Below, one piece after another: positions 2,845 through 41,826 of a DNA stretch of 64,000 nucleotides (its first letter is position 1; the number at the start of each line of letters is the position of its first letter). The translations under genes and the position numbers were made by a program. Under the pieces are notes generated by a model, which worked only from the letters and a program-made list of their open reading frames with translations, had not been told where the DNA came from and made no database searches. The stretch covers positions 1,344,517 through 1,408,516 of the forward strand of contig DASPLQ010000012.1 of NCBI GenBank assembly GCA_035627515.1. The letters are read 5' to 3'. The DNA comes from Vitreimonas sp. Its GTDB lineage: Bacteria > Patescibacteriota > Microgenomatia > UBA1400 > PJMF01.

Positions 2845-2894
2845 GTCATTTAAAAGTTACACTTTTTATTCAAACTGTAAACTTTAGATGACAG
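2845..2894. promoter_or_regulatory. Palindromic intergenic element, copy 1 (arms TGTCATYTAAARGTTTACA, ~13-bp AT spacer), 10 bp upstream of the XRE regulator start
   Basis: GTCATTTAAAAGTTACAC...CTGTAAACTTTAGATGACAG. Same architecture at 8803-8853 and 38757-38805. Confidence 0.6.
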
Positions 2895-2924
2895 ATTCTT
2901 CCAAGGATATACCTCCAACCTTTA

Positions 2925-3578
2925 CTAAACCGTAGTACTAACCAAATCACTCATTTTAGCTGCGATAGCTTCTTCAGCAATTTCCTCAGGTTTTATTTTG
3001 CACACTTCAAAAATCTGCTTTTCAATTTGGTATAAGTATTGAGAATATTGCCGCCGCTTCATCACATCTTCTTCCAGAGAATATTTATCACCATATCGCT
3101 CCTCTAAGTCATCTAACCGTTCTTGCAAAAGCACCACTCCAGTTGGCGCCACCCGCATATCAGCATAGGCACAGATTTTTTGAGCTAAATCAGAGCTTAA
3201 AAAGTTTTCCTCAGCTTTCAAGAAACCCACTGCATCAATTAACTCATAAACTCGCAGCTCCACCCCAATCTCATCAATAATTTTCATCGTTGCATCATGA
3301 TCATTGTGACCATACTTTGCCACAAACTCTTTCTGGATTTCTTGCCAATATTCCAACTCACCAGCCGGCACAAACTCGGGAAACTTCAATAAATCAAACT
3401 TCACGATGTTACCCATGTCATGTAGTAAACAAGCTAAAATCACATGGCGGCGATCATTATCAGAAAGGGGAGTAGTTAAGGTATCTACAATCACGGCGGC
3501 CACACCTGCTACCCGTAGCTGGTGCTGCTGCAAATTAGGCATCAACCGATACTGTTGGTAAAGCTGCGCAATCGTCAT
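2925..3578 (-). CDS. HD-domain phosphohydrolase
   Basis: Conserved H...HD motif (LLHDMGN). Confidence 0.7.
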   Translation of the reverse strand: MTIAQLYQQYRLMPNLQQHQLRVAGVAAVIVDTLTTPLSDNDRRHVILACLLHDMGNIVKFDLLKFPEFVPAGELEYWQEIQKEFVAKYGHNDHDATMKIIDEIGVELRVYELIDAVGFLKAEENFLSSDLAQKICAYADMRVAPTGVVLLQERLDDLEERYGDKYSLEEDVMKRRQYSQYLYQIEKQIFEVCKIKPEEIAEEAIAAKMSDLVSTTV

Positions 3579-3598
3579 GGGGCAAGTATAACAAACTC

Positions 3599-4318
3599 TT
3601 ACTTAAAAAAGGCGCCATACCGGATAGAGCGCGAAAACTTCCGGTAAAAAGCCTCTAAAATCACGTCTCGGGCTTCATTAACTTGGAAGTACTGGGTATT
3701 TATCGTCAAGTCATATGAGTTACATTTATCAATATCCTTGCGCAAATACTGCTTCACAAAGGACCGCCGTTCTTTCTCCACTTTGGCGATCACTTCTTTA
3801 GCTTGAGCTTCATTCAATCCCTCAAAATCCATGGCCCGCTTCACTCGCCGATCGTATGGAGCTGTGATATTAATGTGCAACCCTTTAGCAAACGGACAAA
3901 TAAAGTTTGCACCTCTACCTAGAATAACTACATGTCCTTGCAAAGCGTATGCCAGCATCACCTTCACTAACTCCGTCACATACGTTAAGTCATCAATGTA
4001 CTCAGGATTAAGAATCGAGTGGACAATGTCATCAATTTTGCTGCGGCTCTTTTCATCGATAGCTTTAATGGCTGCTTTACGTTGTTTAGTCGAGTTCGCA
4101 ATTTCTTCAATCAGTTGGTCATCAACAAAAGTAAAACCTAACTTGTCTGCCACTGCTTTGGCAATGGGTGCCCCACCACTACCGGGCTCACGAGCAATGG
4201 TAATAAAGGGTCGGACAAATGAAGATTCAGCATCAGCACTATATTGATTAAAGATGCGATCTTTGATGTTGAGGGTATTAATGATTTTATTAACCAGCGG
4301 GTAATAATGTAGGGACAT
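3599..4318 (-). CDS. Cytidylate kinase-like family P-loop protein
   Basis: ITIAREPGSGGAPIAKAVADKLGF is a Walker-A-like loop typical of the cytidylate-kinase-like family. TATAAT sits 9 nt upstream of the ATG. Confidence 0.6.
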   Translation of the reverse strand: MSLHYYPLVNKIINTLNIKDRIFNQYSADAESSFVRPFITIAREPGSGGAPIAKAVADKLGFTFVDDQLIEEIANSTKQRKAAIKAIDEKSRSKIDDIVHSILNPEYIDDLTYVTELVKVMLAYALQGHVVILGRGANFICPFAKGLHINITAPYDRRVKRAMDFEGLNEAQAKEVIAKVEKERRSFVKQYLRKDIDKCNSYDLTINTQYFQVNEARDVILEAFYRKFSRSIRYGAFFK

Positions 4319-4410
4319 ACTTAATTATATCTAAGACTCCAATGAGCAGAAATTATGTACCCCAGATGATGTTATAATGTCAGAGCCTGTTAAGAGGTAT
4401 GTAAGTTTTC

Positions 4411-4484
4411 GCGTCAGTAGCTCAGTTGGATAGAGCATCTGTCTTCGGAACAGAGGGTCGGGGGTTCGAATCCCTCCTGGCGCA
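4411..4484 (+). tRNA. tRNA-Arg(TCG)
   Basis: Acceptor gcgtcag/ctggcgc. Anticodon loop ctTCGga. T-arm ggttcgaatcc. Followed by a T-run and the hairpin cttcgccttggcgaag. Confidence 0.8.
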
Positions 4485-4581
4485 CTTTTTTTACTCCTGT
4501 ACTCCAAGCCTTTCTTCGCCTTGGCGAAGCTCGCTTTATTTTGTAAACTTTTACCTTGTTACTTTTACTTGAGGAAATTAT

Positions 4582-5202
4582 ATGTACGCTGATACTGTCT
4601 ATTTATTTGGTGATCAATTTGCTCCGGCTGCCGGGATGTTGGGTTATAAAGAAACCTTGCCCAATGGCACAAAAGTTGATCAGAAGCGCTTAGCGGAACT
4701 GGTCGTCATAGCGGCTTTAGTCGAAATGAGTGAACAAGGTTACATCAAGACCTATGTAAAAGATGGGGAATTTTTGTTTTTTAAAACCCAAACTGCAGTC
4801 GTGAGCTTAGAAAAAAAACCTGCCAAGTCTTTAGGTGTATTCGAACATGCTTTACTTAGTGTATTGGATAGTGCCCAAAAAGAACTGTCTATTAACGATT
4901 TACTTCATTACCTTTTGCAACGGGACAGTTATAACCCCTGGGGTGAAGTGACTAGATTCATTAATGAAAATCTCATCAACCGAGGCATTCTAGAAAAGAC
5001 TAAAGATAAACAAATATTATTTATTAAAACCTACAAAAATGTACTGAAAGGGGAAATTCCCCAAGAAGAACAACAGCGGTTAGAAAAAGTCAAAACGGCT
5101 TTAGAACACTTTAAAAATAACGATCCTGTGCTTTATAAAAAAGTTCTTGATGGCGTCAATAATGGGATTAGCTCCCGGGTAGTGCAATCAGATAATGACT
5201 AA
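4582..5202 (+). CDS. Hypothetical protein
   Basis: 206-aa ORF. No confident family call. Confidence 0.45.
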   Translation: MYADTVYLFGDQFAPAAGMLGYKETLPNGTKVDQKRLAELVVIAALVEMSEQGYIKTYVKDGEFLFFKTQTAVVSLEKKPAKSLGVFEHALLSVLDSAQKELSINDLLHYLLQRDSYNPWGEVTRFINENLINRGILEKTKDKQILFIKTYKNVLKGEIPQEEQQRLEKVKTALEHFKNNDPVLYKKVLDGVNNGISSRVVQSDND

Positions 5203-5216
5203 GAGTATACTGAGGT

Positions 5217-5807
5217 ATGTCAACCTCTCCCTCTCAACCTACTCAACCACAATCACCACGACGCTTATTTCGCGCCCTCGAAGCTAAATCTTTGCGCTCA
5301 CGGACCGTACCGACCCAAATTGCTGATTATTTAACGAGCAAAAGTAGCACCCCTACTTTTTTGTTTTTGAACACGCTGTTATTTGCGTTTTGGATAATTT
5401 GGAACTCAGGCCTTATTCCTCAACTCAAACCCATCGATCCGTATCCCTTTGGCTTTTTGACGATGGTGGTCTCACTAGAAGCAATTGCGTTATCCATTTT
5501 TGTGTTAATTTCTCAAAATCGGGCGGCTCAAATTGCCACCTTGCGTGATGAGCTCAACTTACGCGTCAATCTGATTGCTGAACAAGAAGTGACTAAAAGT
5601 TTACAAATTTTAGCTGAGATGCGGACTAAAATGGGCATTAAAACTCCTGATCCTGAGCTTGAGGAAATGTTGCAAGATATTAATGCCTCTGACCTTGAGC
5701 ACTCGATCGCGGCTCAGTTAGTGAGAGCGGACCAAACGGTCATTACCAAACTGACCAAAAAAGACGTTCCTAACCTAATTAACTCGCTCCTGAATGTGCG
5801 GCGGTAA
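5217..5807 (+). CDS. Hypothetical membrane protein (two TM helices; possibly DUF1003-like)
   Basis: Two hydrophobic helices (FLFLNTLLFAFWIIW; LTMVVSLEAIALSIFVLI) followed by a coiled C-terminal region. Confidence 0.45.
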   Translation: MSTSPSQPTQPQSPRRLFRALEAKSLRSRTVPTQIADYLTSKSSTPTFLFLNTLLFAFWIIWNSGLIPQLKPIDPYPFGFLTMVVSLEAIALSIFVLISQNRAAQIATLRDELNLRVNLIAEQEVTKSLQILAEMRTKMGIKTPDPELEEMLQDINASDLEHSIAAQLVRADQTVITKLTKKDVPNLINSLLNVRR

Positions 5808-5816
5808 ACTCCTAGC

Positions 5817-5847
5817 TTGACTTTGCCCTTACTGGAATGTTTATAGT
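5817..5847 (+). promoter_or_regulatory. Sigma70-like promoter with a 19-bp spacer (TTGACT-N19-TATAGT), the hallmark of MerR-regulated promoters; dyad TAGTACaattcGTACTA overlaps the -10 box and transcription start
   Basis: TTGACT at 5817-5822, TATAGT at 5842-5847, ATG at 5860, giving a near-leaderless mRNA. Confidence 0.55.
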
Positions 5848-5859
5848 ACAATTCGTACT

Positions 5860-6282
5860 ATGAAACACTTAACTGTCAGCCAACTAGGAAAAGCTATTGG
5901 TGTCACACCCAAAACCATTCGCTTTTATGAATCTGAAGGCTTAATCACGCCTACAAAGCGGGCCGAGAATGGTTATCGTTTGTATGATGAATCGCTGGTT
6001 GAGGAACTTCAGTTAATTAAACAAGCTCGAGATTTAGGTTTGCCCCTCAAAGAAATTAAAACCTTACTAGCAGGTTGCCAAGGTGAAAGTTGCGATCACA
6101 CTAAAAAATATGTGCAGGGTGAAATTGATGACTACTTGGTCAAACTGAGCGCCAAAATTGACCAACTTCTTAATTTGCAGGCAAAATTACAACAACTCCG
6201 GACCCAGCTGGACAGCAATCCTCAATTTTGTGAGGGGGGAAAGTATTGTTGTAATATTTTGCATCAATTATCAAAAGTCTAG
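5860..6282 (+). CDS. MerR-family transcriptional regulator with Cys-rich C-terminus (probable metal sensor)
   Basis: N-terminal MerR HTH (LTVSQLGKAIGVTPKTIRFYESEGLITP...GYRLYDE). C-terminal Cys cluster (GCQGESCDH...KYCCN). Confidence 0.8.
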   Translation: MKHLTVSQLGKAIGVTPKTIRFYESEGLITPTKRAENGYRLYDESLVEELQLIKQARDLGLPLKEIKTLLAGCQGESCDHTKKYVQGEIDDYLVKLSAKIDQLLNLQAKLQQLRTQLDSNPQFCEGGKYCCNILHQLSKV

Positions 6283-6298
6283 AAAGGAGGTGAGAAAT

Positions 6299-6343
6299 AT
6301 GAATTCCAACGAAACGTGTTGCGGCGGCGGTTGCCAATGCTAA
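6299..6343 (+). CDS. 14-aa Cys-rich micro-protein MNSNETCCGGGCQC (putative metal-binding peptide)
   Basis: ATG at 6299 preceded by a strong SD (aaaggaggtga, 7-nt spacing). Five Cys in 14 residues. Followed by hairpin terminator ccatcatgtgcgcgccatgatgg at 6371-6393. Co-directional and contiguous with the merR-like gene. Confidence 0.55.
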   Translation: MNSNETCCGGGCQC

Positions 6344-6370
6344 GTATTAAACATTAATACACCAACACAA

Positions 6371-6400
6371 CCATCATGTGCGCGCCATGATGGTTTATCT
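6371..6400 (+). terminator. Putative intrinsic terminator after the merR/micro-ORF unit
   Basis: 8-bp perfect stem ccatcatg/catgatgg followed by tttatct. Confidence 0.45.
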
Positions 6401-6452
6401 CCCTCTACTTGATCGCATAAGTATCTGATATATAATTTAGTTATAGGATTAT

Positions 6453-7454
6453 ATGTCGGAAATTGTTCAAAAAGGTTTTTCACTAGCTCCAGGTGTGGAC
6501 ACACAAACTTTCCCTGTACGGGGACCTTTGGTTGAAATAACAGACCAAGGTTTCAAAGTTGTTCAAGGCCTGGGCAGCATACCTTTAGAAACGTTAGCAA
6601 AATACTACGATTTATATCACAATCGTCTTGACACACCCAGGGTAGAAATGTCAGTAGATGAAGAAGCACTCCAAAAATGGGTTGATCTTTTAATTGATGA
6701 CGCTTTTTCTGCAGTTGGTATAAATCTTGTTAGAAAGTTGGGATTATACCCTGATCCTAATGGTAAAAACATTTTAACTCCTTCAATTATTCTTACTCAC
6801 CTTACTAATCAACCAAATAGATATGTCCAGCTTAATGCTATTACTCCTGAAGGAAAAATCAGGATTAGAGCTATAAAAGTTGTTGATCTCTTTCAAGGAG
6901 ACTTTGCAGCTTGCCAATACACCATATTTACAGGTTTAAGAATGGCAGCGTGGGAAAAATTAACTGAAGAAGGCAATGATCCTCGATTTCAGGATTCTAT
7001 CTTTCAATCTTTGATGAGTAAGTCATTAAATACCGAAAGGATTCTCCAGCACGTTCATAACTCACCGCAACTTTTTGAGTGGGCATATCCAAATGACGGA
7101 CCTCAGAATTTAATCCAATCGGTGGAAGCATTGATTTACAACGCTGCAATTCGAGAGACATACTTGCCACTTATTCAAATCGCCAATAAAATGCTAACGA
7201 ACTTAATTTTATTTAACCACCTGGCAGATGAGAACCTCATCTTAGCCGGTAAGCCAACCTATAATGATGACGCAACTTATAATTTTAGTGATCATGAATT
7301 CCAATCAATAATTAACAGTCTCAAAAATAAAGCCCTCTTCCTACTTTACTTCAGAATGGACCTCATGGACCCTGCATCACATCGTTATTTAGTTGAGTAT
7401 CTTTATTATCGTTTTGGTGAAGAAGCCCCAGGAAAGAAATGGGAAACAAACTAA
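6453..7454 (+). CDS. Hypothetical protein (333 aa)
   Basis: Long ORF. No recognisable motif. Confidence 0.45.
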   Translation: MSEIVQKGFSLAPGVDTQTFPVRGPLVEITDQGFKVVQGLGSIPLETLAKYYDLYHNRLDTPRVEMSVDEEALQKWVDLLIDDAFSAVGINLVRKLGLYPDPNGKNILTPSIILTHLTNQPNRYVQLNAITPEGKIRIRAIKVVDLFQGDFAACQYTIFTGLRMAAWEKLTEEGNDPRFQDSIFQSLMSKSLNTERILQHVHNSPQLFEWAYPNDGPQNLIQSVEALIYNAAIRETYLPLIQIANKMLTNLILFNHLADENLILAGKPTYNDDATYNFSDHEFQSIINSLKNKALFLLYFRMDLMDPASHRYLVEYLYYRFGEEAPGKKWETN

Positions 7455-7461
7455 ATTAAGT

Positions 7462-7896
7462 ATGGAAAGAAGTCATAACCTCCCAATAGATGAACTCCAA
7501 CGAAGAGCTGGCAGTGCTAACCGTGGATTTAATGACACAATTATCAAGCCACAAGCTTTTAGAATTGGTTTGAGTCAATCTAATCCAGAGTTCCTACCAC
7601 CGAAAAAAAAAGTCATTATTTTTCCAAGACAACAGAACTTTGCACAAATTAATACACAGACTGCGACTGAAACACTCCTGCTTCCAGCCACAACCTCACG
7701 CATCAAATCACGACGAGATCGTACTGCTTCACCTGTTTCCGAGCTTAATGACGTGGTAGAAGCGATTAATACACGCGTCCAAAAAGAAAACCAACCGCTA
7801 GCCGACGATGTAAGTGCTGAAACCTTAATGGTCCAAGCCCTACAAAAAATCTTATCGAGCAAATCACAAGCCAAAGCTCCAACTAAACTTGTTTAG
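7462..7896 (+). CDS. Hypothetical protein (start trimmed to the first non-overlapping ATG)
   Basis: ORF 7393-7896 overlaps the previous gene. ATG at 7462 (MERSHNLPIDEL...) removes the overlap. Ser/Thr/Pro-rich low complexity. Confidence 0.35.
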   Translation: MERSHNLPIDELQRRAGSANRGFNDTIIKPQAFRIGLSQSNPEFLPPKKKVIIFPRQQNFAQINTQTATETLLLPATTSRIKSRRDRTASPVSELNDVVEAINTRVQKENQPLADDVSAETLMVQALQKILSSKSQAKAPTKLV

Positions 7897-8758
7897 CTAA
7901 AAACTCCAACACTGCCTTTTGAAACCCCTCGGGATCATGCCAAAAGATGTCATGACCAGTCGGAAACTCCTGATACTCTTTGGTCGTTTCTAAAGCTCGG
8001 TAAATATCACTAGCATCTTCATGATCAACTGTTTGATCTTTTTCAGCTGAAAATAAAAGCACCGGCACTTTAATATTACCCACCACAGCCATAGGAGTGT
8101 TACCTGGGTAGCTTCGGCCAAACTCTAAGTAACCCGCTGTGGTCATAAATGGGGTAAATATGCTGGCTGGAAAACCTTCTTTATCGATTCTGAAGGCAAA
8201 GAGGGACTGCAAGTTTTTATACGGCACAGAGGCAATAATAAAATCACCCTTCTGGGTTTTACCGACAGTTACTAGTGAAGTGGTAGCGCCCATGGAGATA
8301 CCCAAGTAGCCAATCTTCTTATCTTTATTTTCAGAGAGGGAAGAGAGGTGATCATAAACAGCTTCTAAATCTTGCCATTCTTTGACACCCATATAAATTT
8401 TTTCTCCCTCACTCTCACCAAAACTCCGCATATCAACTAATACTGTCGAGTAACCAGCTTTTCTCAGGTAGGGGACATGCCCCAACATGCTGGTCTTACC
8501 ACCGGGGTTGCTGTACCCATGAACTAAAATGACTACTGCTTTGGGATTTTTGACTGGAAAAGACCAGTACGCAATCTGTTGGCCATTAGCATTGGTTACA
8601 AATTGGGTTTCGGCCGTCAAACCATCAGGAAACGTATATTCCGAAGCCTCGGCGTGGAAATTGAGTTGCGTATGGAGGCGATACCAGACATAGAGAAAGG
8701 CAATTACTATCCCTGTTAAGAATAGTAATATTAAAAAGAGAAGAATTTTCATAGCCAA
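7883..8758 (-). CDS. Secreted/membrane-anchored alpha/beta hydrolase (dienelactone-hydrolase/esterase-like)
   Basis: N-terminal hydrophobic signal/anchor. GxSxG nucleophile elbow (GISMGA). HGY motif. Confidence 0.7.
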   Translation of the reverse strand: MAMKILLFLILLFLTGIVIAFLYVWYRLHTQLNFHAEASEYTFPDGLTAETQFVTNANGQQIAYWSFPVKNPKAVVILVHGYSNPGGKTSMLGHVPYLRKAGYSTVLVDMRSFGESEGEKIYMGVKEWQDLEAVYDHLSSLSENKDKKIGYLGISMGATTSLVTVGKTQKGDFIIASVPYKNLQSLFAFRIDKEGFPASIFTPFMTTAGYLEFGRSYPGNTPMAVVGNIKVPVLLFSAEKDQTVDHEDASDIYRALETTKEYQEFPTGHDIFWHDPEGFQKAVLEFLAKQV

Positions 8759-8802
8759 AAACTTAATTTAGATTGAGACATCAGTATCATTATACAGAAA
8801 TC

Positions 8803-8853
8803 TGTCATTTAAAGTTTACATTTTTAATTTAATATGTAACATCTAGATGACAG
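8803..8853. promoter_or_regulatory. Palindromic intergenic element, copy 2, in the divergent promoter region between the alpha/beta hydrolase and GNAT genes
   Basis: TGTCATTTAAAGTTTACA-N14-TGTAACATCTAGATGACAG. Confidence 0.6.
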
Positions 8854-8881
8854 TTTTAGAAAAAGGCTATAATACTCCCAC

Positions 8882-9370
8882 ATGTTTGAAATTAAAGAAT
8901 TAACAGATTTAGACACTGCTTATCGCATCGGGCAGTTCTTAACAGGCCCCTATGCTTTCGAACATAACTGGGCACCGAATGAAAAAGCGGTGGTGGAGCA
9001 AGCACCTATTGATAGCTTAACCGGCACAAACCATCAGTATTAGTATATCGAACACGAGGGTGAGATTATTGCGGCGATTGGAGTCCGCGAAAATAAATAT
9101 GGTAGTGGCGGCTATGAAATGGACACTGATTACATGGCGGTTCATAAAGAGTATCGCCAGCAAGGCTTAGCTACCTTAATGCTGCAAAAGGTTGAAGACT
9201 ATGTCAAAGCGAAAGGTGGACGATATCTCCACATCCTCTCCTGCGACATCGATTATCACATTCCCGCTCGAGCCTTTTACGAAAAACATGGCTTCCAAAA
9301 AGTGGGGTATATGCCTAATTACTACGTGCCTGGAGAAGGTCGCATTGATTATTACAAGGAACTGTTATGA
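8882..9370 (+). pseudogene. GNAT-family N-acetyltransferase interrupted by an in-frame TAG at 9041-9043
   Basis: ATG at 8882 has TATAAT 7 nt upstream. The reading frame is continuous with ORF 9119-9370 except for a single TAG (..LTGTNHQY*YIEHEGEIIAAIGV..). The downstream part carries the GNAT motif-A region (QQGLATLMLQKVEDYVKAKG). Confidence 0.6.
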
Positions 9371-9438
9371 AAACACTGTTATTACTTTTTTTGGTTATCA
9401 TTCCGGCTATTAAAGTGTGGTGGAATAAGAAGTCTTAA

Positions 9439-9783
9439 TTACCTTACCATCGTACCCGGTTTCACCTCAGCTCCAACTTCAACTAAAGTGGGAACGTTCG
9501 CTTCATCTACTGCCATCAACATCATGCCTTGGCTGACACCTTGGCCCATTTTACGCTCAGCTAAATTAGCAATAAAAATGAATGACTTACCGATGAGATC
9601 CTCAGGTGTATAAAATTGTTTAATACCAGACATTATAGTTTTTTGACCAATTTCCTCACCAAAATCGACCTGATACTCAATCAGCTTCTCACTCCACTCT
9701 GGTACCTGTGCAGCGATGATTTTACCAACTCGTAAATCTAGTTTTTCAAAATCGGGGTAGTGGATGATATCTTTCATAGGCAA
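9439..9783 (-). CDS. tRNA-binding protein (CsaA/Trbp111-like OB-fold domain)
   Basis: DLRVGKIIAAQVPE...KLIEYQVDFGEE...GIKQFYTPEDLIGK is typical of the Myf/EMAP tRNA-binding domain. Confidence 0.7.
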   Translation of the reverse strand: MPMKDIIHYPDFEKLDLRVGKIIAAQVPEWSEKLIEYQVDFGEEIGQKTIMSGIKQFYTPEDLIGKSFIFIANLAERKMGQGVSQGMMLMAVDEANVPTLVEVGAEVKPGTMVR

Positions 9784-9827
9784 AAATTATACCAGATGTT
9801 TGAGCTTTGCGAGGTTATAATGGCTGC

Positions 9828-10412
9828 ATGACTCAACACGCTAAATGGAAAATAATTAATCAGCAGGACGTCTCGCCGAGCCCTTGGTTTCCAATTGTAA
9901 AAGATGAAGTGGAGTTGCCGAATGGGAAACGAGTTGAGTATTTTCGGTCACAGTTAGCGAATGTAGCGATGGTAATAGCTATTACCAAACAAAAAGAAGT
10001 GGTATTTGTTCGCCAATACAAACATGGGATAGGAGAGGTTTGTATTGAACTGCCAGCTGGACGGATTGAGGTTGGCCAAACTCCCCGCGCAGCTGCTCTT
10101 CACGAGTTACAGCAAGAAACAGGGGTTAGTATCGCTGAAACTCAATTAATTGAAGTAGTTGAATTGTGGACAGAACCCAGTAAAAGTCAGGTCAGAGTGT
10201 ATGGGTTTTTGGTGACAGAAGTTGAAATTACCGACGCACAAAATTTAGAAGAAACCGAAGACATTGAAGTCATAAAAGTGCCTTTGCACGAGCTTTCCAA
10301 CTTCCTACTCACTGAAGTACACGCCTCCGACACTATGGCATTATTACTTCTTGCCCAGCAAAAGTGGCCAGAGCTATTTGATGACCTAAAAGCCAAACAC
10401 TTAATCAAATAA
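9828..10412 (+). CDS. NUDIX hydrolase (ADP-ribose pyrophosphatase-like)
   Basis: Nudix box GX5EX7REUXEEXGU (PAGRIEVGQTPRAAALHELQQETGV). Track start 9807 is a TTG; ATG at 9828 has TATAAT 7 nt upstream. Confidence 0.75.
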   Translation: MTQHAKWKIINQQDVSPSPWFPIVKDEVELPNGKRVEYFRSQLANVAMVIAITKQKEVVFVRQYKHGIGEVCIELPAGRIEVGQTPRAAALHELQQETGVSIAETQLIEVVELWTEPSKSQVRVYGFLVTEVEITDAQNLEETEDIEVIKVPLHELSNFLLTEVHASDTMALLLLAQQKWPELFDDLKAKHLIK

Positions 10413-12137: not shown

Positions 12138-12195
12138 AGCAGTGATTATACAGGCCAATTAACATTCTTCAGTTCAAATGAAAAACCTTCGATAG

Positions 12196-12768
12196 CTACC
12201 TAAGTACTTCTTCTAGCAACTCAGGGAATTCATTAGTGTTCATTTGGAAAAATAAGAAGTGTTGTTTATTTTCCAATCTCACCACACGCGGTTTAAGGGC
12301 TTGATTGTATAAATCAAAAGCTTTCATCATGTGAGGTAAATCGTTAGAAATAAAAATCACTATCTCATTGGCTAAATGAGGAACCTCTCTGGGCAACTCA
12401 AAGTCATATAAATCTTTTCTGCTATCATCGTCAGTTTCCGGCACACGGGCTGGAGCTACTAAAATTAATTTATGGATTTTTCTACCGGTGTCTAATAACC
12501 ACCGCACAATAAAAGCCCCTCCACAGCTATGCCCAACCACCACCGTTTTTTCAGTCACAGGGTATTTCTCAAACTCTTTTTTCCACTCCACATATTTGGG
12601 GTTCCAGGAAACCGGCATATCTAACGCCGTAGCATCTAAACCCTTTTCTTGGAGCTTATCTGCTAACCAATTCATCCACCGTTTCTCTTTCGGCATTAAC
12701 ATCGCCTCACTAGGAGGACAACCGTGAAGAACATAGTATTTGTCGGGGATGGTTTTTGGGAAGTTCAT
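12196..12768 (-). CDS. Alpha/beta-fold serine hydrolase, YdeN/RBBP9-like
   Basis: VVVGHSCGG nucleophile motif. ~190 aa, matching the YdeN family size. Start trimmed to MNFPK with an AGGA 9 nt upstream. Confidence 0.6.
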   Translation of the reverse strand: MNFPKTIPDKYYVLHGCPPSEAMLMPKEKRWMNWLADKLQEKGLDATALDMPVSWNPKYVEWKKEFEKYPVTEKTVVVGHSCGGAFIVRWLLDTGRKIHKLILVAPARVPETDDDSRKDLYDFELPREVPHLANEIVIFISNDLPHMMKAFDLYNQALKPRVVRLENKQHFLFFQMNTNEFPELLEEVLR

Positions 12769-12778
12769 AATTGAAATC

Positions 12779-13258: not shown

Positions 13259-13296
13259 AAAGTGAGTTTAACACAGATGAAGTGATTGGAGAGAAT

Positions 13297-13644: not shown

Positions 13645-13707
13645 GAGCTCATTTTAACAGCACGTTACAGTTAAATGAAAGTCTGATTGCGATATATTTA
13701 TATCTTG

Positions 13708-13781
13708 TGAGTCGGGTGGGACTCGAACCCACGACATTCTGCTTAAGAGGCAGACGCTCTAACCGACTGAGCTACCGACCC
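13708..13781 (-). tRNA. tRNA-Lys(CTT)
   Basis: Reverse-complement reads gggtcggtagctcagtcggttagagcgtctgcctCTTaagcagaatgtcgtgggttcgagtcccacccgactca. Acceptor gggtcgg/ccgactc (one GU). Confidence 0.85.
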
Positions 13782-13805
13782 TCACATTCATAACTTTTTA
13801 TTAAC

Positions 13806-13870: not shown

Positions 13871-13948
13871 CACATTCCGTAAGACTGATTATTTTAGCAC
13901 AAACTTGAGTAGAAATTGGGAGAAATTAAGGTGTTACAATCATTAGAG

Positions 13949-17366: not shown

Positions 17367-17455
17367 TGGTGCCGAGAACAGGAATCGAACCTGCACGCCT
17401 TTTGAAGGGCACTGGATTCTAAGTCCAGCCTGTCTACCAATTTCAGCATCTCGGC
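17367..17455 (-). tRNA. tRNA-Leu(TAG), CCA encoded
   Basis: Reverse-complement reads gccgagatgctgaaattggtagacaggctggactTAGaatccag...ggttcgattcctgttctcggcacca. Long variable arm. Confidence 0.85.
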
Positions 17456-17569
17456 GTTTGTGCTGAAAAATAATTCGCTTCGGTTGCGAGTACGCAAATC
17501 TCAGCTCATTATTTTTCTTCACTCACATTATTTCTCACTCACTTAGTTACTCGCTCAATCAATTACTTC
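17456..17569. repeat. Right copy of the ~115-bp inverted repeat (partner 305-422), directly upstream, in gene orientation, of tRNA-Leu(TAG)
   Basis: See the left copy; the 48-bp core is identical. Confidence 0.85.
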
Positions 17570-29387: not shown

Positions 29388-29412
29388 TAACTTAATCACG
29401 GCAAAGGTCTTC

Positions 29413-31791: not shown

Positions 31792-31793
31792 CT

Positions 31794-34761: not shown

Positions 34762-34796
34762 GTAAATAGTACAATATAGAAATAAAGAAACCTTCT

Positions 34797-35882
34797 ATGG
34801 AAAGAACTGCTCCTTTACCTTTTCCCGAACTGGAAGCTAAACAATTGTCGTTGCACGAAAAAGTCTTACTCAAAGCCATTGCTGAAGGTTATCAGACTGG
34901 AGCTTTCGCCGGTGCTTTTGATAATAAATCTATTAGTTATAAGCTCAACTCAGCAGGAAGCAGGGTGCACGATTCTGACATCAGTGGGGTTAATATTGAA
35001 CAACTGGTTAAAGCCTTCAAAAAAGATCCTAAAGTGGCAGCGGCTATTTGTCGCAACAATCTTTTGGCAATCATGAGAGATCCTCAAGAAAAGAATCTTG
35101 AAGAAAAACGAGGCCGATTGAGTCGTTATTACGATGCGTATGTTTCATTAACCGTCAAGCTCGATAAAGCTGCTTTTCCTCCCCAATCACCATTATCGGA
35201 GGCACAAAGTGGTGTACCCACTTATATTCCGGATGGCTTGAGTGACATGGGCTCTGATAAACAAGTTAATCCTGCACTGCGTACTAGAGAAAAAATTAGA
35301 GTTAATAAAAAAGAAGTTTTAACTGAATCCAAAGCTTTCTTCTTGGAATTGCTGGAAGAACTAGGTCTCAATCCTGAACTTCAGGCCGATGGTGATCCGG
35401 CTAAGCTTGAAAAACTTAAGATTCAAATAGTTAAAAAAATTGCCAACTATCTTTACAAACGGGTTAAATACAATCATGCCCAAACAATACCGGCTGCAGC
35501 TCAAGTCCGATCGGTAGGGATTGTGGAGTTCTTCGATAGTGGCGTTTGTCGCCATATCGCCATGCTTGCTCAAATCTTATACCAGTTTATGGGAATTACT
35601 TCTCGGGTCTTTAAAAATGACATGAATGATGAACCACATGTCTCCAACTTTTTGCGGCTTAATGGTGAGTGGAATATTATTGATGTCACTAATCCTATTT
35701 ATAAAAATCCTGATGATGATACCTTTATTTTTGGTGGCATGAAAATTCAAAATCCGGATTCTGTACCTAATGGTCACGAATGGGAATTTACTTTTATTAA
35801 TAAAGAACAACAAGAATTTAAACGTCGCTACCGCTTACGTCAAAATATGTATTATCGAATTTTAGATAACAGCGTTACCTAA
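34797..35882 (+). CDS. Transglutaminase-like cysteine-protease-fold protein (AT-rich gene)
   Basis: Cys-His-Asp core: GVCRHIAML ... HVSNFLRLNGEWNIIDVTN. Confidence 0.45.
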   Translation: MERTAPLPFPELEAKQLSLHEKVLLKAIAEGYQTGAFAGAFDNKSISYKLNSAGSRVHDSDISGVNIEQLVKAFKKDPKVAAAICRNNLLAIMRDPQEKNLEEKRGRLSRYYDAYVSLTVKLDKAAFPPQSPLSEAQSGVPTYIPDGLSDMGSDKQVNPALRTREKIRVNKKEVLTESKAFFLELLEELGLNPELQADGDPAKLEKLKIQIVKKIANYLYKRVKYNHAQTIPAAAQVRSVGIVEFFDSGVCRHIAMLAQILYQFMGITSRVFKNDMNDEPHVSNFLRLNGEWNIIDVTNPIYKNPDDDTFIFGGMKIQNPDSVPNGHEWEFTFINKEQQEFKRRYRLRQNMYYRILDNSVT

Positions 35883-35915
35883 ATCCTCTCTTTATTCTAC
35901 CTTCAAGGATGACCT

Positions 35916-37120
35916 TTATTCTTTTTTCGGGGTCTTAAACACCAAACTCATCACTGGTAACAATCCCAACACAAATAATGCCCCGGGCAATGTGTTATCT
36001 ACCAGTACGCCAATCAAGGGGTTAAAAAAGACTAGCGCCAATCGGCGCAACATCGAGATTGAAGACAATACTGTAGCTCGTTGGTGTGACTCGATGTAAG
36101 CGTTCATTTCTGTGCCGATGTACGTGGCGCGTGTTAAACCAAAGCCGCCAGCCAAAATAATCATCAAAGCCACCGTCAGCAATGAGGGGTAAAGGGCCAC
36201 ACTTAAAAACCCCACCATTACCAACAACGCTGATACCTTTTCATATGACCACACTTTGAACAGCTTTGTCAGTCGCTCAAACTGAGAGGCTACAGCAATT
36301 TGTGCCAGCACCAAAGCTCCATGAATTAAACCAAAATAACCAATCGGGACGTCTAAACTAATTAGTAATGGTTGATACAACCAAATTACAAAATAAGCTG
36401 CGGTAGCAACGATAGTACTATTAATCGCCAAGGACCATAAGTGAGGATGAGTGTATAAATACCGTAATCCTTGCTTAACAATGTGTAGATACCGTTGTGA
36501 CTCTTTAGGGCCAGAATGGGGCTGCGGTTCTTTAAGCGTCAACCCAACCAAGCAGGCACCAAAAAGGGGAATCGCTGAAAAAGCATTGGCGCGTTAAGAG
36601 GGAAATATTCGGCAATTACACCACCTAAACCAGCAGACACAAATAAAGCCGCTAAATGAATTGATTCTGCACGACCAAAAAATTTTTTACTTTCTGCTTC
36701 ATGCCCATGTTCTTTAAGTGTGTCATACAGCCAGGCTTCATCAGCTCCAGAAATTAATGAGGCTGCCACTGCGAATAAAAATTCACCGATTAAGAATACT
36801 GTCAGACTGGGAATACTCCCATACATTAAGACCGCAGCTGTGGACATTAATGCTCCCAAGCCTAATGAATATTTGCGCCCCAGATAATCCGCTACCGCCC
36901 CAGTGGGAACTTCCAAAATGAAAAACCATAACATAAACCATGATTGTAAAAACTGAACTTGTGATTGTGATAACCCTCCCCAATTGAGAAAGAAGGGAAC
37001 TAAAACCGCAGAAAAGAAGTGAAAATCTTTAAGAAACATGAATACGTAATAACGATAGAGTTGAGTTCGCATCAGACTGTGTATTTTAACAGAAGAACGT
37101 GCTTGATTTTTAGTTCTCAT
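35916..37120 (-). pseudogene. MFS transporter split by a +1 frameshift near 36545-36595
   Basis: ORF 36539-37120 encodes TM1-6 and ORF 35916-36551 encodes TM7-12. They overlap in different frames. The downstream ORF has no ATG (track start is a TTG) and its frame stays open upstream to ~36594. The shift lies near a T5/C4 homopolymer (cccctttttgg). Confidence 0.6.
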
Positions 37121-37243
37121 CTTACAAAAACAAATTGATCTATTTAGACCATCTAAGATGTAATTGTCACTTCGGCCTTACTTCGGTTACCATGGTTTTA
37201 TTCGGGATTCATACGCCCCAATAAAAAGCGTAAAAGGAGTTTC

Positions 37244-37864
37244 ATGCCGATCACTTTGTACAAACGTCAACGACAGATTGTGGATTTCATTGCTCAATAT
37301 ATTCAGAAAAATGGCTATTCACCCACGCTTCAAGAAATTGCTCAAGCGATTGGGGTGTCATCTTTAGCGACGGTCCATGAACACTTGCAAGCTTTACAAC
37401 GCAAAAAAGTAATTCGTAAATTTGAAGGGGCAGTCCGCGGAATTGAGTTAATCGACCGCACGTTTTTAAAAATGACAGACAGCGTCGATTTGCCTTTATT
37501 AGGCTTCATCGCCGCTGGTTCACCCATCCAGCCCCATACCGATCCCAATGCTACCTTTAAAGTTTCACCTGAACTCGTCAGTAGTAAACACCGCACATAT
37601 GTCCTGCAAGTCAAAGGTAAATCAATGATCGAAGATCACATCGATGATGGTGACTTTGTCGTCATTGCGGAAACCCAAGCTGTTAATAACGGTGACATCG
37701 TCGTAGCATTACTCGACAATGGCCTCGCCACACTGAAACGCTTCTACAAAGAAGTCACTCGTGTCCGCCTCGAGCCCGCCAACTCTACCATGAGTCCTAT
37801 CTACGCTACTAATGTTCAAATCCAAGGTCGTGTCGTTGGCTTGATCCGTAAGTTTAGTTATTAA
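37244..37864 (+). CDS. lexA: LexA repressor
   Basis: N-terminal winged HTH (LTLYKRQRQIVDFI...GYSPTLQEIAQAIGV). S24 peptidase Ser (GKSM) and Lys. 206 aa. Confidence 0.85.
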   Translation: MPITLYKRQRQIVDFIAQYIQKNGYSPTLQEIAQAIGVSSLATVHEHLQALQRKKVIRKFEGAVRGIELIDRTFLKMTDSVDLPLLGFIAAGSPIQPHTDPNATFKVSPELVSSKHRTYVLQVKGKSMIEDHIDDGDFVVIAETQAVNNGDIVVALLDNGLATLKRFYKEVTRVRLEPANSTMSPIYATNVQIQGRVVGLIRKFSY

Positions 37865-37866
37865 AC

Positions 37867-38712
37867 TTACAGGGTGTTGACGCTCATCCAATCTTTTTTA
37901 GCATGTCCTTTTTGGAGTACTTTTTTATACTCTGCTAAGACTTCATCTAAAAATTTTATATCAAGGTCTTTTGCTAATTGCTTAACATACGTCAAGTCTT
38001 TGGTAATCCATTCAATTGAGAAAGTAATAGGGTCTGGTTCTTGGAAATACGTTTTTTGAGTTATTTGCGTAATAATGCCACCAGGCCGATCAGCTAAAGC
38101 TTCACTCACTTTAAGTAGATCCATGTCATACGCTTTAGCCAATTTCATAGCTTGTCCAAAACCCACGATATGGAGTGCTTGTAAAAAGTTTAGAATCAAT
38201 TTATATCTCATCCCATGTCCCTCAGGCCCAAAATGAATAACTTTTTTCGCAATAGCCCCGAGAGTGGATTCAATTTCTTTCAATACAACTTCTTGACCTC
38301 CACAAAGTAATGTCAAAGTGCCGGCTTCAGCTGCTACTCGGCCACCAGTTAATGCAATATCTAAAAACGACAAACCTTGCTTTTGGCATTTGTTAATTAA
38401 CTCATCAATCCATTCTACTGATAATGTAGCGCTAGCAATCAGGATAGTCCTCGGTTGCGCACCACTAAGAATTCCTTGACTACCCAGCCAAACTGCCTTA
38501 GATGATTCATCATTAGCCGTAACTTCGAAAACAATATCGGCTTTTTCTGCCACTTGAGCCGGACTTGAACAAATGACAGCCCCTTTCTTTTGAAATTCTT
38601 GGACTGTTGCTTCAGTTCTGTTCCACACCAAAACTTGATAACCATGCTTAAGAAAGTTATCTGCCATCCCTCTACCCATGATTCCCATACCAACAATGCC
38701 TATTTTTTTCAT
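37867..38712 (-). CDS. NAD(P)-dependent 3-hydroxyisobutyrate dehydrogenase-family oxidoreductase
   Basis: MKKIGIVGMGIMG Rossmann start. 6-PGDH-like NAD-binding fold. Confidence 0.75.
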   Translation of the reverse strand: MKKIGIVGMGIMGRGMADNFLKHGYQVLVWNRTEATVQEFQKKGAVICSSPAQVAEKADIVFEVTANDESSKAVWLGSQGILSGAQPRTILIASATLSVEWIDELINKCQKQGLSFLDIALTGGRVAAEAGTLTLLCGGQEVVLKEIESTLGAIAKKVIHFGPEGHGMRYKLILNFLQALHIVGFGQAMKLAKAYDMDLLKVSEALADRPGGIITQITQKTYFQEPDPITFSIEWITKDLTYVKQLAKDLDIKFLDEVLAEYKKVLQKGHAKKDWMSVNTL

Positions 38713-38756
38713 AATTAAGTGAGAGTTTAACGTAAGCACTCAATTTTTTCTACTCC

Positions 38757-38805
38757 GTCATTTAAAGTTTACAACCTTGCCTAAAAATGTAACTTTTAGA
38801 TGACA
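38757..38805. promoter_or_regulatory. Palindromic intergenic element, copy 3, in the divergent promoter region
   Basis: GTCATTTAAAGTTTACA-N14-TGTAACTTTTAGATGACA. Confidence 0.6.
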
Positions 38806-38875
38806 TTTCTTTCAATTCAAGATCCCTTTGAAGACCTAGTTGGTTTTTAGACTTCTTAGGTTTAGGATAGGGAAG

Positions 38876-39220
38876 ATGTCAAATTCTCCTGAATTAAGTG
38901 TTGAAAGACTTATTGAAGCCAAGGAAGTCGTCGATCGAGCCTTAAAAAACTACAAACAAAATAAACACCTGCTCATTGATAGTTCTGCGCCTCGCACTGC
39001 AGAATATTATGCCAATGAAAAAGCGTATGAAGATAACCGTCGCACTTTACTGAGAAAACAAACTACTTTAGACCTTGTCTTACAAAGCTGGTATAGGTAC
39101 ATTCAAGAAACAAATTTATTTAGCCAAGTTGCCAGCTTGAATACTTTCTTAGCAGCCTTCGAGCACCTTCAAGCAGCTGATTTGCAAACTTTAGTTAATC
39201 AGATTTTGGAACCTACCTAA
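38876..39220 (+). CDS. Hypothetical protein
   Basis: ATG at 38876 (MSNSPELSVERL...); the track start at 38840 is a TTG. Confidence 0.4.
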   Translation: MSNSPELSVERLIEAKEVVDRALKNYKQNKHLLIDSSAPRTAEYYANEKAYEDNRRTLLRKQTTLDLVLQSWYRYIQETNLFSQVASLNTFLAAFEHLQAADLQTLVNQILEPT

Positions 39221-39755
39221 CCTCAAACTTTGACTCCACCACCGCCTCCTGTTGATTCACAAAGCAGCGGAGAACGTATAAATAGTCAGATAATCTATTC
39301 ACGTACTGGAACACCAAAGCCGAGACGGTAACGTCTTTGCTATACCGGACAATCAGCCGTTCTAACTTCCGAGCCACCGTCCGTGTCACGTCTAAGCGCG
39401 CAGCGGCTTCACTGCCTCCAGGAAATAAAAACTTGGTCGTCCAACCTTCAGCCATGTGTTGCTGCAATGACTCACTTATTGTTTCCAAAGCCAATAGTTG
39501 TTCTTTTTTTAACTTCGCCTTGGGCGAAAGTGCTAGCTCCGCGCCTATATAAAACAACGTCTCTTGAAGTTGTTTGAGGAACTGCTTGTGCTCTGCAAAC
39601 TCAGCTGATAGAGCCACCAAACTCAAGCCAATCCATGAACTTAATTCATCGACAGTCCCTAAGACCTCGAAAATCAACTCATCTTTGCCGACGCGTTGAC
39701 CATTGGCTAAGCCACTGACACCTTTATCCCCTGTTTTTGTGCTGACTGATAACAT
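39213..39755 (-). CDS. PduO-type ATP:cob(I)alamin adenosyltransferase
   Basis: N-terminal TKTGDKG motif and size (~180 aa). Confidence 0.75.
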   Translation of the reverse strand: MLSVSTKTGDKGVSGLANGQRVGKDELIFEVLGTVDELSSWIGLSLVALSAEFAEHKQFLKQLQETLFYIGAELALSPKAKLKKEQLLALETISESLQQHMAEGWTTKFLFPGGSEAAARLDVTRTVARKLERLIVRYSKDVTVSALVFQYVNRLSDYLYVLRCFVNQQEAVVESKFEVR

Positions 39756-39783
39756 AGCTTTATTATAACGGTATAATCAGTCT

Positions 39784-40773
39784 ATGCAGGTACATGTTCA
39801 CACTGACCCCACTATTTTTACCACCCAGGCAGAGGAGTACACCGCTTTACTCACCAGTGCAGATAATCCAGCTTTTTTCATGCTGCCTGAGTATCAAGCC
39901 GTGTGGTGGCATCACCTGGGCGAGGGTGAACTAGAAGTACTTGAATTTCGTAGTGATAAAGGCACTTTAGTGGGCTTGGCGCCGCTGTATAATCACAATG
40001 GCACATATCGCTTAGTGGGCGCAGTGGATGTGAGTGATTACTTAGATATTATTGTCACTTCCGCACATAAAGCTGAAGTTTATCAGGCTCTAATTAATTA
40101 CTTCCACGCTAAAGATGCTTGGGAACAACTCAAACTCGAAAGCCTAGCACATTCATCTCCAACCTTAACCGAACTCCCAGCTCTCGCGGCGGCTCAAGGG
40201 TGGCAAACCGAACAAAAACAGCAGGATGTGTGTCCAGTTCTCGCTTTACCGGCAAACTGGGAGGAGTACTTCAGTTCGCTCGACCTCACCGTCCAAAAGA
40301 ACTTCAAACGTTTACTGCGCAGTATTGGTGAAGAAGATGAGATCACGTATTCTGTGATCACTTCAGACAATGAAATTGAAGCCGCTATGAATGATTTCAT
40401 TCTTCTTCATAAACAATCAGGTGAAGAAAAAAAATTATTCTGGGATGAAAAAAAAGAAGCCTTTTTTAAAGAATTAGGTAAAACTCTGCTCACAGCTGGA
40501 TACTTAAAGTTATTCTTTTTATCAGTAAATGATGATCGTGCTGCGGCCTTAATGATCTTTGATTGGCACAATCTGTACTTACTTTACAATTCTGGATTCA
40601 ACGCCTATCGCTACGGACACATGGGAGTAGGGAATGCACTCATTTTACATACCATTCAGCAAGCCATCAAAGAAAAAAAAGGTATTTATGACTTTATGCG
40701 TGGCAATGAGAGCTATAAATTTCAATTTAGAGCACAACCACAAAATATCTTTGATCTGTTTATAACAAAATAA
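39784..40773 (+). CDS. Two-domain GNAT-fold protein (FemAB/CelD/MshD-like acyl- or aminoacyl-transferase)
   Basis: ~330 aa, matching the duplicated GNAT architecture. C-terminal motif NSGFNAYRYGHMGVGNALIL. TATAAT 8 nt upstream of the ATG. Confidence 0.5.
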   Translation: MQVHVHTDPTIFTTQAEEYTALLTSADNPAFFMLPEYQAVWWHHLGEGELEVLEFRSDKGTLVGLAPLYNHNGTYRLVGAVDVSDYLDIIVTSAHKAEVYQALINYFHAKDAWEQLKLESLAHSSPTLTELPALAAAQGWQTEQKQQDVCPVLALPANWEEYFSSLDLTVQKNFKRLLRSIGEEDEITYSVITSDNEIEAAMNDFILLHKQSGEEKKLFWDEKKEAFFKELGKTLLTAGYLKLFFLSVNDDRAAALMIFDWHNLYLLYNSGFNAYRYGHMGVGNALILHTIQQAIKEKKGIYDFMRGNESYKFQFRAQPQNIFDLFITK

Positions 40774-40824
40774 ATTTTTGCCTTGTGAAAAGTCGTGAAA
40801 TATTGTGAAACGTGCGTGAAAATA

Positions 40825-41526
40825 TTAAATCTTCTGAAAAATCTCTTGTTTAGCTAGCCATTGTTGACCAGCTTCAGTTGCTGACACTAACTGGTAGAGC
40901 TCGTGCATATTTTCTCGGGCGCTCATGTGCTCTCGTGGTGTTTTCAAAGCCTGAGATTTATGTAAATCCATGGCTTTAATTTTTATGTCACGCAACTCAG
41001 TTACATTTACTACATGAGTCGTAGGTAAGTTTTTATTAAAAACGTAGCGCCATTTTCCCGCATCTACCTGAAAAAAGGTGTGAAAGAAAACTGCAGGAGT
41101 GTATGCAGACTTTTGGACTGCCAAAGTACTCGCAATGGAGACAGCCACGTGATCCAAGTGATAATACCAACCAGTGTGATCAAAGGTGACGAGCACGTCC
41201 GGTTGGTACTCATCAATCAGCGATACGCAGTCATTGAGCAGTCGACCCCATACATCCAGGTTATTAATTTGACCATCAGCATAATCTAGAATTTGACCCT
41301 CAGCGCCCAGCAACGCACATACGGCTGCAAACTCCTGTCTCCGCACCCCGGCCAAACCACCTGCTGCCTCTAACTCTTCCTGAGTCACCTCAATCACCGT
41401 GCTGGCTTCACCGGCAGTCATCGACACAATTTTCACCTGATGCCCCTGATCCGTTAAGAGTTTAATGGTCCCACCACACCCAATCGTTTCATCATCGGGA
41501 TGGGCAAATAAAAAGAGGAATTTCAT
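40825..41526 (-). CDS. PIG-L/LmbE-family N-acetylglucosaminyl deacetylase
   Basis: N-terminal HPDDE motif (FAHPDDETIGCGGTI). HxxH region. Confidence 0.75.
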   Translation of the reverse strand: MKFLFLFAHPDDETIGCGGTIKLLTDQGHQVKIVSMTAGEASTVIEVTQEELEAAGGLAGVRRQEFAAVCALLGAEGQILDYADGQINNLDVWGRLLNDCVSLIDEYQPDVLVTFDHTGWYYHLDHVAVSIASTLAVQKSAYTPAVFFHTFFQVDAGKWRYVFNKNLPTTHVVNVTELRDIKIKAMDLHKSQALKTPREHMSARENMHELYQLVSATEAGQQWLAKQEIFQKI

Positions 41527-41563
41527 AAATTGAAAGGTGGTTGTATGATAGCGCTACCAGTTT

Positions 41564-41785
41564 ATGGAAACCAGCGCAGAAATACCTTACCATTTAAGTG
41601 AAGCAGCTCGTACCCAACGACATCACGATGCTAAAACTATCATGGCTATTTTTGCCACTATTGTCAGCGGTTTTGCCTATCCACCGTTAACCGTAATTTA
41701 TGGTGGCATGGCTACTTGGCAACTGCGGTTAGCGCTCAGAGCTCGGTCGGCAAGTGATAGCTCAGCTGAGAAACTCGTCAGCTAA
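41564..41785 (+). CDS. Small hypothetical protein (possible single TM)
   Basis: 73-aa ORF. Weak support. Confidence 0.25.
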   Translation: METSAEIPYHLSEAARTQRHHDAKTIMAIFATIVSGFAYPPLTVIYGGMATWQLRLALRARSASDSSAEKLVS

Positions 41786-41786
41786 A

Positions 41787-41826
41787 GATGACACTTTTTG
41801 TCTAAAGTGTAACTTTTAAATGACAG
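41787..41826. repeat. Degenerate copy of the palindromic intergenic element (right arm intact)
   Basis: AGATGACAC...TGTAACTTTTAAATGACAG. Confidence 0.4.

Follow-up and report, generated by a model that had tools for sequence, protein, structure and literature searches.

We analysed a family of approximately 50-bp imperfect palindromic elements in a 64-kb stretch of contig DASPLQ010000012.1 (positions 1,344,517 to 1,408,516; hereafter the window), one copy of which directly precedes the gene of a small XRE-family regulator (2527-2835). The element is most likely an ordinary gene switch and not a selfish repeat, and we put the probability that each copy represents a pair of 18-bp operators for this CylR2-like XRE at a little under 0.8. 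Autoregulation of the XRE gene is the firm part of this reading, while a wider regulon that would take in an alpha/beta hydrolase, a GNAT acetyltransferase and a dehydrogenase of the HIBADH type is proposed more tentatively. An operator for the adjacent XRE, including autoregulation, had been put forward in an earlier reading of the window (hereafter the original prediction), and this proposal is now supported by dyads at XRE orthologues and by an association of the element with XRE genes across phyla and phages.

Results

A repeat search of the window returned a single family (D1) with four copies in register (Table 1), which bears out the predicted family of palindromes. Every copy is 48-50 bp long and consists of two 18-bp dyads in inverted orientation, each of the form (T/C)GTCAT-N6-TTTACA; written as 18-mers, the unit reads (T/C)GTCAT-YTAAAR-KTTACA, a 14-nt spacer and the inverted 18-mer. 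When the 64 kb were scanned with a weight matrix derived from the eight arms, these scored 20-25 bits against 13 bits for the runner-up site, and no stray single arms or fragments were found elsewhere in the window. With up to three mismatches allowed, the 17-mer GTCATYTAAARKTTACA has 11 matches, eight of them the arms themselves, compared with 1.9 expected, a count that was reached in none of 100 shuffles. Each arm is in turn an imperfect dyad, TGTCA-N8-TTACA, and the pattern TGTMA-N8-TKACA occurs five times in the window versus 0.22 times expected. The dyads are 32 bp apart from centre to centre, or about three helical turns, and the spacer, which is T-rich and then A-rich, has a constant length of 14 nt across the copies rather than the 13-16 bp first described. 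Other details of the original prediction also had to be revised. The proposed 19-mer consensus TGTCATYTAAARGTTTACA has no match even at three mismatches; it contains one surplus base, the arm being 17-18 nt long. Copy 4, which had been taken for a one-armed remnant at 41787-41826, spans the full length of the element (41776-41825), with 12-14 of 17 positions intact in the left arm, GTCAGCTAAAGATGACA. The best alignment of copy 4 is with copy 1 in inverted orientation, in which 21 of 21 nt agree.

The distribution of differences among the copies bears on what is being conserved. Between copies, identity is 83-86% in the arms, 52% in the spacer and 31-41% in the flanks. Within copies, the complementarity of the two arms (13.25/17) is lower than the identity of arms between copies (14.5/17), and therefore it is the sequence that is under selection, not a hairpin. 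Target-site duplications were absent from the flanks of all four copies, each of which lies in the non-coding 11% of the window. Conserved arms around a diverged spacer are the opposite of what a recent burst of a mobile repeat would leave and, together with the missing target duplications and the stems that are not maintained, they disfavour the dispersed repeat that the original prediction had offered as its alternative, namely a miniature inverted-repeat transposable element (MITE) or a repetitive extragenic palindrome (REP).

The XRE gene, which has a gene for a glycine transfer RNA (tRNA-Gly) and an HD-domain gene as neighbours, encodes a protein with a Cro/C1-type helix-turn-helix domain (HTH_3, PF01381; E 5.8e-10, residues 16-67). 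Its closest relative among solved structures by sequence is CylR2, the cytolysin repressor of Enterococcus faecalis (E 3.4e-7). A single-sequence AlphaFold 2 model had a predicted local distance difference test score (pLDDT) of 45 and was discarded in favour of a model based on an alignment of orthologues, which reached a pLDDT of 84 and comprises two strands (E9-13 and E70-74) and five helices. The top Foldseek matches of this model are 2xiu and 1utx, with target template-modelling (TM) scores of 0.93-0.96, a root mean square deviation of 0.7-0.8 Å over 64 columns and 38% identity. The recognition helix begins with Ser-Arg-Gln (SRQ). These XREs do not belong to any curated NCBIfam subfamily, every match falling under the cut-offs, and tblastn revealed no remnants of XRE pseudogenes near copies 2-4.

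A relaxed pattern drawn up from the window element alone (GTCANNTANNNNTNACA, N12-16, TGTNANNNNTANNTGAC) matched 117 stretches in public collections (31 from genomes, 79 from metagenomes and seven viral), among which there were no close relatives of the source organism. Of the 110 loci from genomes and metagenomes, 57 contain a CylR2-like XRE open reading frame (ORF) with the recognition helix (V/I)SRQ, and at 43 of them the XRE start lies no more than 70 bp from the element or overlaps it; XRE-like ORFs account for 61 of the 4131 ORFs across these loci. In the viral matches, an XRE gene is found within 56 nt of the element in seven of seven cases. The XREs at the matched loci fall into at least 13 protein clusters (mutually no more than 70% identical) and come from Firmicutes, Acidobacteriota, Proteobacteria and Actinobacteriota. 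Where the element is linked to an XRE, its arm is a 16-bp dyad, GTCAA-N6-TTGAC, with the upstream arm ending in TTGACA (-35) and the downstream arm opening with TGTAAAAT (-10), directly followed by the XRE gene; copy 1 is laid out on the same plan. Conversely, a profile of those XREs, from which the window protein was excluded, had a single match among the window ORFs of at least 40 amino acids (aa), and this was the ORF next to copy 1 (E 1.2e-16). Several of the Firmicutes matches carry a gene for a small membrane-protein partner beside the XRE. In prophages of gut Firmicutes (L011, L045, L061 and others) and in IMG/VR contigs (L123-L129), the two-dyad unit lies between two divergent XRE genes, one long (160-196 aa) and the other short (63-65 aa), an arrangement resembling a cI/cro-type switch with GTCAA-N6-TTGAC operators. 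The contig L006, from a metagenome-assembled genome of Bacteroidota (JAYWAZ010000066.1), carries at 4727-4776 a perfect 50-bp palindrome, TGTCATTTACAGTTTACA-cctttttaaaaaag-TGTAAACTGTAAATGACA, in which each arm departs from the window consensus at one position only (16 of 17 agree). It has the same 14-nt spacer and lies 7 nt before an exbD-like ATG. This palindrome is either due to chance or an operator type common to different phyla.

A word-index search for homologues of the window XRE gave only the query itself, but an exhaustive search of representatives gave 25 matches with E below 1e-10 and found full-length orthologues with 40-57% identity that share the C-terminal helix (window residues 80-94). 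The original prediction had named conservation of the element upstream of such orthologues as a check, and the outcome is positive, as TGT-N12-ACA dyads stand directly upstream of the start codon in four of five (L118, L119, L120 and L122). In L118, TGTTGC-N6-GCAACA occurs twice in inverted orientation (TGTTGCTTAAAAGCAACA and its inverse, 22 nt apart). In L119, where a Cytidylate_kin2 gene is followed by the XRE gene in synteny with the window, there is one such dyad, TGTTGCAGATCTGCAACA, 17 nt before the ATG. Four dyads of the form TGTnnC-N6-GnnACA precede the XRE gene of L120. Upstream of the orthologue in L122 (P0274), the order is TGTCAAGCAAACTTTACA, 14 nt, TGCCAACTTTACTTGACG, 16 nt and ATG, with TGTCA...TTTACA half-sites. 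This last protein is the only one of the five to keep the SRQ recognition helix, and its half-sites, their spacing and their position are as in the window. The half-site sequence changes along with the recognition helix, and the likely rule is that SRQ helices go with GTCA, and NRS, SRE or SRS helices with GTTGC or GTAGC. L121 has a frameshifted second XRE copy (540-835) directly upstream of its orthologue (P0256), a decaying tandem paralogue. The search of representatives also listed very long tandem-XRE proteins (P0254/P0258; 4900 aa with 21 stretches, and 883 aa with seven).

The distances to gene starts that had been claimed for copies 1-3 were confirmed, but copy 4 is not in a promoter region. 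Copy 1 is separated from the ATG of the XRE gene by 8-9 nt and lies 31 nt past the stop codon of the HD-domain gene. Copies 2 and 3 are situated between divergent starts, copy 2 at 50 nt from the ATG of the hydrolase gene on its left and 29 nt from that of the GNAT fragment on its right. For copy 3, the distances are 43 nt to the dehydrogenase ATG and 70 nt to that of a 114-aa hypothetical protein. Copy 4 occurs at gene 3′ ends: it begins 5 nt past the stop codon of a cofE-like gene, contains the stop codon of a 73-aa ORF and has no flanking -10 box.

Table 1. Copies of the palindromic element, the proposed regulator and neighbouring features, in window coordinates.
Feature	Position	Strand	Remarks
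Copy 1	2844-2893		Dyads 2844-2861 and 2876-2893, spacer 2862-2875
Copy 2	8803-8852		Dyads 8803-8820 and 8835-8852
Copy 3	38756-38805		Dyads 38756-38773 and 38788-38805
Copy 4	41776-41825		Dyads 41776-41793 (weakened, CGTCAGCTAAAGATGACA) and 41808-41825
XRE-family regulator	2527-2835	-	102 aa; Pfam HTH_3; CylR2-type fold plus C-terminal helix; proposed binder
TATAAT (-10), hydrolase gene	8789-8794	-	8 nt outside left dyad of copy 2
TATAAT (-10), GNAT fragment	8868-8873	+	15 nt outside right dyad of copy 2; 8 nt before ATG at 8882
Alpha/beta hydrolase	7883-8752	-	289 aa from ATG, N-terminal membrane segment; Pfam Hydrolase_4, Abhydrolase_1, Peptidase_S15; putative target
GNAT acetyltransferase, split	8882-9370	+	ORFs 8882-9043 and 9119-9370; putative target
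HIBADH-type NAD(P) oxidoreductase	37867-38712	-	281 aa; Pfam NAD_binding_2, E 9.5e-41; putative target
114-aa hypothetical	38876-39220	+	No family match; candidate second target of copy 3

Promoter-like sequences lie both inside and beside the element. At copy 2, a perfect TATAAT box stands on either side of the element, each with its -35 region overlapped by a dyad, and the tRNA promoters of the same genome, with a strong TATAAT and a weak -35, are of the same kind. On the minus strand, copy 1 reads TTTACA, 16 nt, TAACTT, a putative embedded promoter. More generally, the inner dyad ends present TTTACA or GTTACA, 16 nt and TAAACT or TAACTT on either strand, and given these palindromic inner hexamers the element may hold a promoter that works in both directions. 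Beside copy 3, no -10-like box was found next to the dyad on the side of the 114-aa hypothetical. The call of the hydrolase gene agrees with an independent Logan contig (L001), and the split of the GNAT gene, which is identical in L001, is probably a real frameshift or pseudogene, as it is present there too. The TATAAT at 8868-8873 stands so close to its ATG (8882) that the start is nearly leaderless, and at a second near-leaderless start (62999-63020) TGTTATAAT precedes the ATG at 62999; TATAAT boxes that end 8-11 nt before the ATG suggest many near-leaderless messenger RNAs without a Shine-Dalgarno sequence.

The window has a G+C content of 42%, and the closest relatives of its UvrB and of its ATP-binding cassette (ABC) transporter are from Patescibacteria. 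The record, a 1.41-Mb contig whose proteins are singletons, is labelled Vitreimonas sp., an alphaproteobacterium, and in view of these relatives and the G+C content either the label or the genome bin is doubtful. For comparison, five relatives (L112-L116) were chosen by UvrB, which is 74-81% identical. The dehydrogenase gene is absent from their syntenic region. In L113 (UvrB 75% identical), lexA adjoins a gene for a 111-aa protein, whereas in the window lexA and the gene for the 114-aa hypothetical are separated by the dehydrogenase gene and copy 3 (37244-39220 vs. 3203-4174 of L113). From the adjacency of lexA and the small hypothetical gene in L113 it follows that the dehydrogenase gene was either acquired or lost along with its control element. 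The part of the window that holds copies 1 and 2 is accessory; for its ABC transporter, close to copy 2, there is no orthologue with more than 47% identity. The idea that copy 4 is a relic of the promoter of a relocated hydrolase gene was rejected, as the L113 hydrolase at that place, only 29% identical over 97 aa to the hydrolase at copy 2, is not its orthologue. LexA and MerR were also dismissed as binders of the element, which was found neither upstream of lexA (37121-37243) or merR nor at the start region of the uvrB and cofE-like genes; SOS boxes bound by LexA stand before lexA itself and before repair genes including uvrA and uvrB. The uvrB and cofE-like genes are divergent, and their starts overlap or abut at 42573-42612, leaving practically no intergenic space for promoters.

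Discussion

In the mechanism that we propose, one XRE dimer would occupy each dyad through the half-sites GTCAT and GTAAA, which surround a 6-bp AT-rich centre. With the dyads 32 bp apart, two dimers would be located on one side of the double helix, where they could contact each other and possibly bind cooperatively, perhaps by means of the family-specific C-terminal helix. The inner dyad ends would supply promoter hexamers that can be read in both directions as the unit is palindromic, and at copy 2 the dyads would additionally cover the -35 regions of the two flanking TATAAT promoters. Since the dyads overlap promoter hexamers and -35 regions, bound XRE would be expected to block RNA polymerase, that is, to repress rather than activate. 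CylR2 represses from overlapping divergent promoters (PMC3709268). Copy 1 would most likely let the XRE repress its own gene (negative autoregulation). Copies 2 and 3, which offer equally good dyads at promoters, are probably under the control of the same XRE, and the alpha/beta hydrolase, the split GNAT and the HIBADH-type dehydrogenase would then share this control. The link of the 114-aa hypothetical to copy 3 is weak. Copy 4 is probably inactive or decaying.

Several observations weigh against this interpretation. The element is absent at the syntenic places of the relatives chosen by UvrB. The 64 kb examined belong to a 1.41-Mb contig, and at a density of four copies per window the whole genome would hold dozens, a high number for a small regulator that acts locally. 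An operator has no evident job at the gene 3′ ends where copy 4 lies. All four copies have the same overall format and sharp borders, as would be expected of copied modules. Among the orthologues, no clear dyad was found upstream of the one in L121, and the orthologue contexts (0.6-17 kb each) contain no dyads other than those beside the XRE gene and give no hint of a regulon. Finally, the 6.6-kb contig L006 contains no XRE gene despite its near-identical palindrome.

Some of these points are shared by an account in which the element does function as an XRE operator pair and includes a promoter active in both directions, but was multiplied as a module by duplication or recombination, possibly along with accessory genes, so that the copies are homologous to each other and did not arise as separate sites. 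The format that is invariant in the four copies contrasts with the one, two or four dyads at varied spacing seen at orthologues elsewhere, and the inner arm ends serve, by symmetry, as a -35 on one strand and a -10 on the other. Both copy 2 and copy 3 are flanked by divergent genes, two genes that adjoin in L113 have copy 3 and the dehydrogenase gene between them in the window, and the region of copies 1 and 2 is accessory by the measure of its ABC transporter. On the other hand, functional constraint on promoter spacing and cooperative binding could by itself produce the same invariance, and mobility machinery, target duplications and a donor copy are all absent from a family of which only four members were seen. 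We regard duplication of this kind as unlikely. The corresponding scenario, in which a 48-bp cassette spread through a reduced Patescibacteria genome, at least once beside a newly acquired gene, and wired accessory genes to one XRE, is speculative and would be a surprise; if true, it would mean that a regulon can grow through the spread of a cassette instead of the birth of sites by point mutation.

We likewise consider it improbable that the element is a selfish dispersed palindrome of intergenic DNA, similar to REP, MITE or Correia elements, whose adjacency to the XRE gene is coincidental. The common length, format and sharp borders of the four copies would fit such a repeat, as would the location of copy 4 between gene 3′ ends with the stop codon of a small ORF inside it, the arrival of copy 3 with an accessory gene as judged against L113, the relatives that lack the element and the near-identical palindrome of L006 in an unrelated phylum. 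These features are outweighed, in our opinion, by the pattern of arm conservation and spacer divergence without target duplications, by the lack of lone arms or fragments in the rest of the 64 kb, and by the strong tie between the architecture and XRE genes in public data and the matching dyads at XRE orthologues. REPs and the bacterial interspersed mosaic elements (BIMEs) that they form are G+C-rich, imperfect palindromes of 20-40 nt with a GTAG-type foot, which are located mostly at gene 3′ ends, are associated with a Y1 transposase (RAYT) and reach hundreds of copies. The window element has AT-rich arms and no GTAG-type foot, and three of its four copies face gene starts. With regard to MITEs, terminal repeats could be seen in the arms, but flanking duplications are lacking and divergence is not uniform (83-86% in the arms vs. 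52% in the spacer). Correia elements of Neisseria can carry promoters, and along with REP/BIMEs and MITEs they resemble the window element in being short palindromic units that are repeated and confined to intergenic DNA. The window element differs from all of these in its lack of target duplications, foot motif and maintained hairpin, in its few copies and in the constraint on half-sites that look like those bound by a protein.

That the element acts as an RNA or DNA hairpin, either a bidirectional transcription terminator or a stem-loop stabilising messenger RNA, is scarcely credible: each copy does fold better than shuffled sequences (-10 to -15 kcal/mol, z -1.9 to -4.8), copies 1 and 4 lie directly past stop codons, and the left flanks are somewhat enriched in A and the right flanks in T, but there is nothing to terminate between the divergent gene starts at copies 2 and 3, mismatches are not compensated within copies, and in place of the G+C-rich stem and U-tract that intrinsic terminators have at gene 3′ ends the four copies show AT-rich stems with 2-5 central mismatches and no U-tract, none of which was flagged by a terminator scan. 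A terminator can thus be dismissed as the general function.

The XRE operator pair that we favour has its closest parallel in CylR2 and its inverted-repeat operator, which lies in the overlapping divergent promoters PL/PReg. CylR2 is the best match of the window XRE in both sequence and structure, a five-helix bundle with a small beta-sheet, and has the same Ser-Arg-Gln at the start of the recognition helix. In the promoter region before cylR1/cylR2 on an E. faecalis plasmid, the half-sites GTCAA and TTGAC are part of the palindrome TTTTGTCAAGTG-T-CACTTGACAAAA, which we take to be the published 22-bp CylR2 site. Unlike the window dyads, whose half-sites are 6 bp apart and which come in twos at a distance of 32 bp, the cyl half-sites are 7 bp apart and make up a single 25-bp palindrome, and there is one such site compared with four operator pairs in the window. 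The window XRE also differs from CylR2 in its additional conserved C-terminal helix (residues 80-94) and in that no gene for a small multi-pass membrane partner like CylR1 was found beside it. The cI/Cro-type switches of temperate phages share with the window the two dyads, about 33 bp apart and placed over the -35 and -10, as well as an XRE start less than 60 nt away and GTCAA half-sites. In the window, by contrast, there is a single XRE with neither a divergent XRE partner nor phage genes nearby, and the unit recurs at three other loci. The control proteins of restriction-modification systems (C.AhdI, C.BclI and C.Esp1396I) are likewise small XREs and appear among the structural matches of the window protein. 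In their C-boxes, two adjacent dyads cooperatively bind two dimers before the regulator's own gene, resulting in autoregulation. C-box half-sites are of the GACT/AGTC type with other spacing, however, and no restriction or methylase genes adjoin the window XRE.

To our knowledge, transcriptional regulation is almost entirely unexplored in Patescibacteria (the candidate phyla radiation, CPR), bacteria that cannot be cultured on their own and have few regulator genes. The window would provide a concrete regulator-operator pair for this group, consisting of an XRE subfamily with a conserved C-terminal helix, an 18-bp dyad and a candidate regulon of accessory enzymes. In other respects it would be a standard autoregulated XRE switch, notable chiefly for its host.

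A separate repeat concerns the two tRNA-Leu genes of the window (423-508 on the plus strand and 17367-17455 on the minus strand), which have a 75-nt upstream leader in common (364-438 and 17440-17514; 92% identity). These leaders are preceded by short repeats of the GAGTGAGTGA type (305-339 and 17535-17569), and the arrangement may represent a shared promoter or processing signal.

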